Positions 34,341-36,250 of a stretch of 64,000 nt of DNA are shown one piece after another. Origin of the DNA: Schmidtea polychroa (taxonomy: Eukaryota); assembly GCA_044892525.1 (NCBI GenBank), contig CM097885.1, positions 144,646,001 through 144,710,000 of the forward strand, written 5' to 3'. Under the pieces are notes generated by a model that was not told the origin of the DNA, searched no databases, and saw nothing but the letters and a program-made list of their open reading frames with translations. Position 1 is the stretch's first letter; the number at the start of each line of letters is the position of its first letter. The translations under genes and the position numbers were made by a program.

Positions 34341-36250
34341 AAGCGTCGATTAATTCCCTAATGATGACCATGATGATATGGATGCTATGCACAAGCGGAG
34401 CATCAGGGTTTACAATTTACGACTGCGACAATTCGATAATGGGAGAAAAATATTCCTTGAGGGATATAGAGGAATGTAGACAAGCATCCCCGAATAAATT
34501 GGATGTCGTGAAAAAGAAAGTCTCTTATCATGTATACCAAGAATCAGATTTTATTAGAACACAAGCAAGAGAATGCGTAGTATCAAAGAAGGTGTTGGCA
34601 TATTACTGTGGACAATATTCGTATTCAACTCTCATATTACCCGGATTAGATAAAGAAATAGTACCTATACAACGAGAAGACTGTAAAGAGCTTTTTAGAA
34701 CTGGAGCAATGAGAATCAGAGACGGGGTAACAATACACGGACAAAGCGGAATGATCAAGACTGAAAGCATCTATGTAGCCGGACGAGTAAAATCAACTGA
34801 TGGATCATGTAACGGAGGCACATACACGATCAGAGGAGAAGTGATATCGGGGGTAGTAGTAATCGAATCCTACACCGTGGAGTTGAAGGAATACGAAGCG
34901 CAATTCGATGCAAATAATTATCAAATGAAAACCAACCCAGCCTGCAGAGCTACGGAGAACGTATGTAGGACGGGAATTTCGACCATAATATATGAAGCTA
35001 ACACCCAAAAATGCCGACTCCAATTGTTAAAAAGTGCTTTGTTCAATGAAGTAAAAGGAGAAATTTATGAAAACGAGGATGACGATGAAGAGAATGGAAA
35101 CGTAAGGATGCGAAATGGGAAACCAGTTCCACCATCCCCCAAAGAAAAAAGACTCACAACACAAAAAACACCAACTGCACTAATTACAGATGATCCAGAT
35201 ATCGGTATGAGATTCATCAGAGAAAAAGAGACCACCAAATGTGACAGTATAGTATATCGGACGAACTACGCAGGCATTTACATGTCAAGACAAGTAATAG
35301 ACCGAGCAGTGGGAAAGGTATCAACGGAGGACGTGAAGTTGTACCTTTATGCCAATAACAAAATGGACTTTTTATTTCATCGAGGACAAACGACAATGCA
35401 AAAAGTGTATTACGATCTTATACAAAATGACTGTTCATTGAATAAAGAGATACTAAAAACAAAATTAGCCATCGCAATAACACACCCAGATAACACGATG
35501 CCATCACTCCCGTTACCGGATGGACATTTTGGTAGAATGGTGGGAGAGGTAATGTATACATATGCATGTACCAAGACGTTTGCGCGACTGCCAAGAAAAC
35601 CCACCATTCCACCAGGGAAATGTGCAAACGAGTTGGAAATTAGTTACAAAGGGCGAAACAGATTCGTTCAACCCGTCACTAGGATAATGAACCCAATTGG
35701 ATTTTATCCGAACACCTTTAACTGTTCAAATGCATACGGACCATATTATGAAAAACCCGATGGGAAATGGATAATGTTACCAGTAAGAACTGAAGTACAA
35801 GAACCTAAAAAGTTTGGATTAATAGAACTCGCAACCGAACAAGACTTCAAACCAATTGATGTGTCAAAAGCAGGTATGTAGTCACCAGAGGATTTAGAAA
35901 CAGCACGATTAAACGTACTATTCCCAGCAAGGCGAGAATCCATTTTATCGAATATGGTTACCATAACCGGAGGAACAAATTTTCAATCAGGTCCAAATTA
36001 TGAATTATTATTATCACCAGATCATTTTCAACAAGCCACGTCGAACATGATGAAAGCAATGTGGGGAAGATTTCTAGTGTTTGGTCAGATGATGGCAGGT
36101 ATATTGGGAATCATCTTAATTATTCAGATTGTCAGAGTAATATTGACTCAAATGTTAGCTTGTTTTGATATCTATAAGAGGGAAAAGAAAGTAAATTGGA
36201 AATTGATAGTAGGCTTCCTACCATTTTTGGCGAAAACAATGGTGTTGCAC
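34341..36250 (+). CDS. env: Envelope glycoprotein, chuvirus-like (putative class III fusogen), embedded in the polyprotein; in-frame TAG at 35879
   Basis: Internal signal peptide (SLMMTMMIWMLCTSGASG), mature start FTIYDC at 34409, Cys-rich ectodomain, then WGRFLVFGQMMAGILGIILIIQIVRVIL TM (36062-36175). The YDC start and W..F..FG...AG..GI TM pattern match chuvirus-type glycoproteins as I recall them. Confidence 0.78.

Follow-up and report, generated by a model that had tools for sequence, protein, structure and literature searches.

The segment between positions 34341 and 36250 of the window, i.e. of the whole 64,000-nucleotide stretch of Schmidtea polychroa DNA analysed here, is best explained as the env domain of a giant Gypsy element (Metaviridae) of the Burro type, in which the domains follow the order gag-env-pol. 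The probability of roughly 0.88 that we assign to this explanation covers it as a whole—including the env as an old possession of the lineage, the mechanism outlined below and the copy as a young insertion that has decayed since. The env is part of a polyprotein and there is no separate env gene.

The element covers 30,322 bp (22233-52554), is bordered by long terminal repeats (LTRs) of the form TGTTG...CAACA with a GAAT target-site duplication, and presents the features of Ty3/Gypsy (Metaviridae), namely TG...CA LTRs, a target-site duplication, a Ty3-type Gag and the order protease, reverse transcriptase (RT), RNase H and integrase (Table 1). One frame joins the Gag, the weak ubiquitin-like and Bcl-2-like segments, the signal, the ectodomain, the transmembrane (TM) segment, the protease, the RT and the RNase H. 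Upstream of the env signal, this frame has 642 open codons (ORF 32435-35881), and beyond the TM segment it proceeds into the protease-RT-RNase H part (ORF 35882-39016), both extensions having been missed by the initial annotation; the polyprotein thus carries its signal peptide internally. At four-fold sites, the frequency of A is 0.55 in the env versus 0.55-0.67 elsewhere in the element. As for the Bcl-2-like segment, the corresponding match in the relative P0008 reaches E 0.00096, and the GGW motif of this segment is present in three of the 11 relatives checked.

With regard to the remaining parts of the element, 13 substitutions and a single indel separate the two LTRs; all 13 substitutions are transitions, 11 of them reading C>T or G>A when one passes from the 5' copy to the 3' one. 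The LTR also harbours a 252-codon ORF (24966-25724), shortened in the 3' copy and without a Pfam match. The primer-binding-site-like sequence resembles, as we presume, the tRNA-Pro sites, and no tRNA gene was found within the 64-kb window. The 5' leader contains a unit of ~116 nt repeated four times in tandem (27840-28306), and a short G+C-rich stretch with no clear polypurine tract precedes the 3' LTR (48480-48520). In addition to the accessory ORFs listed in Table 1, there are three rich in coiled coils (43577-43963, 45636-46700 and 46873-47577, all on the + strand) and one (47615-48259, +) that resembles a signal peptide followed by a coiled coil and a TM segment, with no Pfam match above the cut-off.

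Table 1 Features of the element and of its env domain, with positions counted from the first nucleotide of the window
Feature	Position	Strand	Basis or remark
Target-site duplication GAAT, left	22229..22232	+	Identical 4 bases flank the element
5' LTR, 4035 bp, TGTTG...CAACA	22233..26267	+	Comparison with 3' LTR
Primer-binding-site-like sequence	26275..26292	+	TGG-initial motif 7 nt past the LTR end
Accessory ORF, RING finger at C-terminus	26658..27257	+	Pfam zf-C3HC4_3 E 9e-8
Gag capsid domain	29702..29986	+	Pfam Retrotrans_gag E 7e-12; stop 30035-30037 comes after
CCHC zinc knuckles, three	30302..30460	+	Pfam zf-CCHC E 2e-10; three motifs seen in translation
Ubiquitin-like domain (weak)	33026..33130	+	Pfam ubiquitin E 0.0095, under curated cut-off
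Bcl-2-like domain (weak), adjoining env signal upstream	34016..34222	+	Pfam Bcl-2 E 0.016, under cut-off
Internal signal peptide	34361..34408	+	Small-residue cleavage site precedes FTIYDC
Predicted class III (gB/chuvirus-G-type) fusion ectodomain	34409..36058	+	PF24664, AlphaFold2, Foldseek, VIA
Premature in-frame TAG	35879-35881	+	Ectodomain codon 491, ~60 codons upstream of anchor
Transmembrane anchor, WGRF...AGILGI segment	36062..36175	+	Hydropathy peak 2.53
Aspartic protease, retroviral, frame of env	36746..37021	+	Pfam RVP E 1.7e-9
Reverse transcriptase and RNase H, frame of env	37685..38737	+	Pfam RVT_1 E 3e-37, RT_RNaseH E 1e-39
Integrase, other frame	39067..39585	+	Pfam Integrase_H2C2 E 6e-21, rve E 9e-13
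Ankyrin repeats	40504..41649	+	Pfam Ank_2 E 8e-18
Second signal, ectodomain and TM, end of polyprotein	42430..43434	+	Hydrophobic stretches 42430-42492, 43204-43299
TRAF-like accessory ORF (RING ... MATH)	44002..45441	+	Pfam TRAF-mep_MATH E 5e-25
3' LTR, 4034 bp	48521..52554	+	Comparison with 5' LTR
Target-site duplication GAAT, right	52555..52558	+	Same 4 bases as left

Concerning the env itself, the initial annotation—made from the letters alone—had described a signal peptide, a mature N-terminus FTIYDC, an ectodomain of ~550 residues, a TM segment and a TAG at 35879, all of which are present between 34361 and 36175. The ectodomain starts with FTIYDC at 34409 and comprises 550 codons with one N-glycosylation sequon and 14 cysteines, so that its description as Cys-rich applies only moderately, although all 14 are well conserved, each being present in no fewer than 96% of the covering rows of the alignment (the query and 118 of the best 150 matches listed). 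The TM segment is the sole stretch in the 3262-codon frame whose hydropathy exceeds 1.5 in a 19-residue window. The Pfam family PF24664 (Monjiviricetes_fusion) matches on either side of the in-frame stop, with E 8.2e-47 (160 bits) upstream and E 1.7e-14 (53 bits) downstream, the curated cut-off of 27 bits being exceeded, and a furin site R-x-[KR]-R is absent from the env. A loop at ~35070-35160 (residues 221-250 of the model described below) is first acidic and then basic and has low confidence in the predicted fold; the Schmidtea rows in the accessible part of PMC13524379 carry an insertion at the same site.

The fold of the ectodomain was predicted by AlphaFold2 as a monomer and without templates, from the alignment of the query and 118 relatives with X placed at the stop. 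The model (mean pLDDT 89.7, pTM 0.69) combines a central helix of 48 residues with long beta hairpins, and the class III architecture—an elongated fusion domain, a PH-like domain, a long central helix and a crown domain—was found in it. When compared with the PDB by Foldseek, all 35 rows listed were herpesvirus gB, the best with E 2.6e-13 and a TM-score of ~0.43; the VIA structure search, run independently, had HSV gB at the top (Z 10.3, rmsd 6.9, 404 aligned), followed by other gBs, rabies G (6.5), Chandipura G (5.8), the Gp of Bourbon virus, a thogotovirus (5.5), and GP64 (3.9). The best matches in BFVD were glycoproteins of chu-like, xinmo-like and related viruses (E 1.5e-36, TM-score up to 0.73, identity 17-20%), this likeness to chuvirus G being dependent on the input because the alignment used for folding was rich in stand-alone chuvirus-like proteins. 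A sequence-profile search of the PDB also reached gB (E 2e-4), the search of the PDB with the single env sequence returned nothing significant, and the ESM Atlas gave no usable match for the ectodomain.

On the basis of this model, the env is confidently predicted to be a class III fusogen, the nearest structures being those of chuvirus-like G and herpesvirus gB. The original proposal of a chuvirus-like fusion glycoprotein within a Gypsy element is thus borne out by the PF24664 match, the class III fold and the Gypsy-type Gag and Pol around it, and the structural comparison proposed along with it, looking for a class III fold, placed herpesvirus gB and chu-like G on top, so that the proposal withstood the attempt at refutation that the initial annotation had named. 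The F-type Env of errantiviruses (class I fold, furin site and fusion peptide) was considered as another candidate and rejected in view of the predicted class III fold and the missing R-x-[KR]-R. It should be added that the view of errantivirus Env as baculovirus-F-like, held in the initial annotation, was too narrow, since env of the gB type is just as abundant as that of the F type in errantiviruses according to the accessible part of PMC13524379.

The relatives were drawn from the best 150 of the 775 proteins that an exhaustive library search with the env gave at E<=0.001, with 266 of them reaching 1e-10 and 27 reaching 1e-30, and 118 of those 150 entered the alignment together with the query. 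Taken with the PF24664 matches, this number lies well outside what chance would produce. Word-indexed homologue searches yielded 0/3252 and 0/4233 candidates with the single env protein and one distant protein with the env profile; given the 775 exhaustive matches, the null results were therefore misses. PF24664 was found in each of the 29 relatives from the best 150 that were scanned by Pfam, and among the 15 best-ranked of these the glycoprotein is followed in the same ORF by a protease in 10 and by an RT in five. In a quick tree comprising 110 ectodomains (those of 152 matching rows that cover 400-750 residues), the query is positioned within a group of 15 rows with an SH-aLRT value of 99, the same group being supported by 100/97 in a careful tree of 40 rows chosen from the quick one. 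Its 14 relatives consist of nine with a protease, three with long in-frame N-terminal extensions and two N-terminal fragments, complete stand-alone proteins thus being absent (0/14); the long proteins P0087, P0118 and P0154, which have no Pfam Pol match, are located outside the group. Eleven of these relatives keep the N-terminal end, each with an upstream part of at least 149 residues and, ahead of YDC, a hydrophobic core that matches the env signal; eight of the 11 have no Met within the 12 residues preceding the core, and the env signal is therefore internal by design. As side observations, an RNase H-like stretch follows the glycoprotein in P0053 (aa 616-760), whose glycoprotein is of the stand-alone group, and Ig domains are fused ahead of the glycoprotein in P0090. 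The phylogeny, which the initial annotation had suggested as a check, thus groups the env with its polyprotein relatives, whereas statements on the donor are limited because the rows of the tree carry no taxon names.

This bears on the origin of the env, for which an independent capture from a negative-strand RNA virus lineage had been put forward. That the query element acquired a chuvirus G gene relatively recently would be in line with the chu-like and xinmo-like virus glycoproteins as the best named structural neighbours, with the different position of the query element in the env and RT trees, and with the Jingchuvirales glycoproteins repeatedly endogenised beside Gypsy fragments in arthropods (PMC10084718, accessible part). 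Such an event is, however, highly improbable in view of the identities, which are 17-20% to the named viral matches and, for the best stand-alone match of full length, 24% versus 39-42% to the best polyprotein-embedded relatives and ~57% to Smed_errantivirus_5 (107 of 187 ungapped positions, counted by eye from the accessible part of PMC13524379), the last value topping every library match listed. The env, moreover, nests among polyprotein relatives and has the codon bias of its element, and the same env occupies the same position in Burro (PMC6431247) and in six Schmidtea elements (PMC13524379), as far as the accessible parts of both sources go; a new and independent capture accordingly finds no support. 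What the polyprotein-embedded clade, the 17-24% identity to stand-alone chuvirus-like proteins, the element's codon bias and the published arrangement point to is an old env shared within the lineage rather than a new capture, a negative-strand RNA virus being a possible donor. Among six elements with both domains, the identities of the env and of RT-RNase H correlate with a Spearman coefficient of 0.62 over 15 non-independent pairs, and the two trees have one split in common and disagree on the query element, so that exchange of env between lineages is possible.

The present copy is damaged by three stops (30035, 32432 and 35879) and by a frameshift in the vicinity of 39000. From the divergence of the LTRs, 1.3 stops would be expected under neutral decay as against the three observed (P=0.15 for three or more). 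In intact relatives the frame continues into the integrase, RNase H and integrase sharing a single frame in four relatives, and the frameshift may possibly be an assembly error. An anchored Env or Pol cannot be made from this copy; the suggestion that the env could make the element infectious thus does not apply to it, owing to the three stops and the frameshift.

Pol is often regulated by readthrough in retroelements, and the stop at 35879 could, on this ground, be regarded as functional, either by setting the Env:Pol ratio through programmed readthrough or by leaving a domesticated, secreted decoy ectodomain; a Met starts the signal in the query, which makes a secreted protein from a separate mRNA conceivable. 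A functional stop is nevertheless extremely improbable, since it sits inside the ectodomain, directly preceding a conserved helix (H493-521 of the model), its column holds an ordinary residue in 94/94 aligned relatives spanning it, and the two further stops and the frameshift elsewhere are those expected of neutral decay. The decay of a young insertion, as included in the best explanation, is therefore preferred.

While the domain order, the topology signals and the fold emerge from the analyses above, the steps by which an intact copy would act can be sketched from general knowledge of viral polyproteins. The cytosolic Gag portion would be synthesised first, after which the internal signal would send the ectodomain into the endoplasmic reticulum and signal peptidase would cleave before FTIYDC. 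The TM segment would then halt the transfer, with Pol being made in the cytosol on the tail of Env and freed by the element's own protease. Env trimers on budding particles would finally fuse these, in the manner of class III fusogens, with a neighbouring cell. The env would have been inherited within the lineage from of old and would represent kin of chuvirus glycoproteins, not a recent loan from them. The topology of a single polyprotein predicts an unusual assembly, in which Pol would be recruited via the Env tail.

It might also be argued that, in this lineage, cell entry is no longer a task of the env, which would act just as a membrane anchor or regulator of an intracellular element. Infectivity of gB-type elements is not demonstrated in the accessible part of PMC13524379, and the env lacks the furin site, although the same source describes this site as not always conserved. 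We consider the loss of the entry function rather unlikely: although the relatives are no more than 24-40% identical, they have retained the full class III architecture and 14/14 cysteines, and this speaks for a fold under selection. The group is of importance in itself, as the accessible part of PMC13524379 leaves the infectivity of invertebrate retroelements with gB-type env as an open question and calls the mechanism of entry unknown; planarians permit both RNAi and grafting.

The polyprotein ends, behind the integrase, with a second membrane unit. A terminal unit consisting of a signal, an ectodomain and a TM segment is also found in P0005 (from aa 2485) and P0009 (from aa 2257), and one of a signal and an ectodomain in P0014 (from aa 2779), i.e. 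in three of the four relatives with an integrase, the fourth, P0017, ending at the integrase. The units of the query, P0005, P0009 and P0014 have no significant similarity to each other, that of the query has no Pfam match above the cut-off, and its fold predicted alone is poor (pLDDT 43). A likeness to fibronectin III, noticed by eye, was discarded, being unsupported by Pfam and reaching at best E 0.12 in pairwise phmmer. In the accessible parts of PMC6431247 and PMC13524379, no description of such a second unit was found. The unit might serve the fusogen as its partner in attachment, or it might be cargo with no connection to it. By analogy with herpesviruses, one may speculate, albeit with the odds against it, that these elements are true planarian retroviruses whose two-protein entry apparatus is cut from one polyprotein with four membrane crossings: in the middle, the gB-like fusogen would carry Pol on its tail, and the second, a fast-evolving type I protein, would be the attachment or trigger partner, like gH/gL or gD for herpesvirus gB. 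In this respect, the second membrane protein offers a tangible candidate for the partner that a gB-like fusogen here still lacks.

As far as the surrounding DNA is concerned, the Gypsy element interrupts a BEL/Pao element (Peptidase_A17 E 2.8e-39; 694-bp direct repeats), which is the target of the insertion only and not the carrier of the env. Its parts lie at 20956-21649 and 52555-58411, and the target-site duplication overlaps the apparent start codon of a BEL gag-like ORF. The ORF 21191-22207 (+) starts in the left BEL/Pao repeat and ends in a ubiquitin domain (Pfam E 1e-21). Exons of a host KDM5-like demethylase and a kinesin are situated to the left of the element (3814-7973 and 10968-16138, both on the - strand). 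The flanking DNA, with a GC content of ~27%, also contains three tandem copies of a 263-nt unit (19808-20596), a perfect 259-bp inverted repeat (60060-60582) and a run of 430 N (19041-19470).

Compared with viral glycoproteins, the env shares the family (PF24664) and the fold with the G proteins of Chuviridae/Jingchuvirales and Xinmoviridae and differs from them in its low identity and in being embedded in a retroelement polyprotein, G being a stand-alone gene. A chuvirus G sensu stricto, or an endogenous chuvirus element, was rejected as an identification, the env lying between Gag and Pol and grouping with polyproteins in a tree whose rows are without taxon names; no match to chuvirus N or L was seen in the ORFs scanned by Pfam. 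A chuvirus-like glycoprotein on an LTR element is also known from mosquitoes (PMC7642597, accessible part), where the carrier is of the BEL/Pao type, whereas here it has a Gypsy-type Gag and Pol.

The element closely resembles the planarian Burro elements (Burro/GYPSM1 of Schmidtea mediterranea) as described in the accessible part of PMC6431247, which exceed 30 kb, have LTRs and one very long ORF, and contain Gag, three CCHC knuckles, ubiquitin-like, BCL2, ankyrin and MATH/TRAF domains, with an env that lies in frame between BCL2 and the protease and matches the fusion glycoproteins of mononegaviruses; the same source names Burro the first instance of an env between gag and pol. The present element has the same set, i.e. 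a Gag with three CCHC knuckles, ubiquitin-like and BCL2-like segments (both weak matches), an env before the protease, ankyrin repeats and MATH/TRAF. The TRAF-like part is, however, a separate downstream ORF here, is within ORF1 in Burro1 and upstream in the Dugesia element; BIR and dUTPase gave no Pfam match here, the dUTPase-like motif of Burro having come from HHpred. Moreover, the Burro env was reported as homologous to the F-like gypsy Env, whereas a class III fold is predicted for the present one, and the present copy, unlike Burro, is broken.

The accessible part of PMC13524379 reports an ancient origin as well as the GAG-ENV-POL order in Platyhelminthes, Nematoda and Bryozoa, and includes six gag-env-pol families with gB-type env from Schmidtea mediterranea. 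With these six, the present element has in common the order of domains, the gB-type fold, the cysteine spacing and the insertion in domain II; neither LTRs nor a primer site are listed for them there, whereas both LTRs are present here. Since its env differs from all six listed, it would represent a sister family. By the tests run, the copy thus belongs to the published Burro-type gag-env-pol group with gB-type env as an additional, decayed family, so that a group whose arrangement had already been described gains one more broken member.
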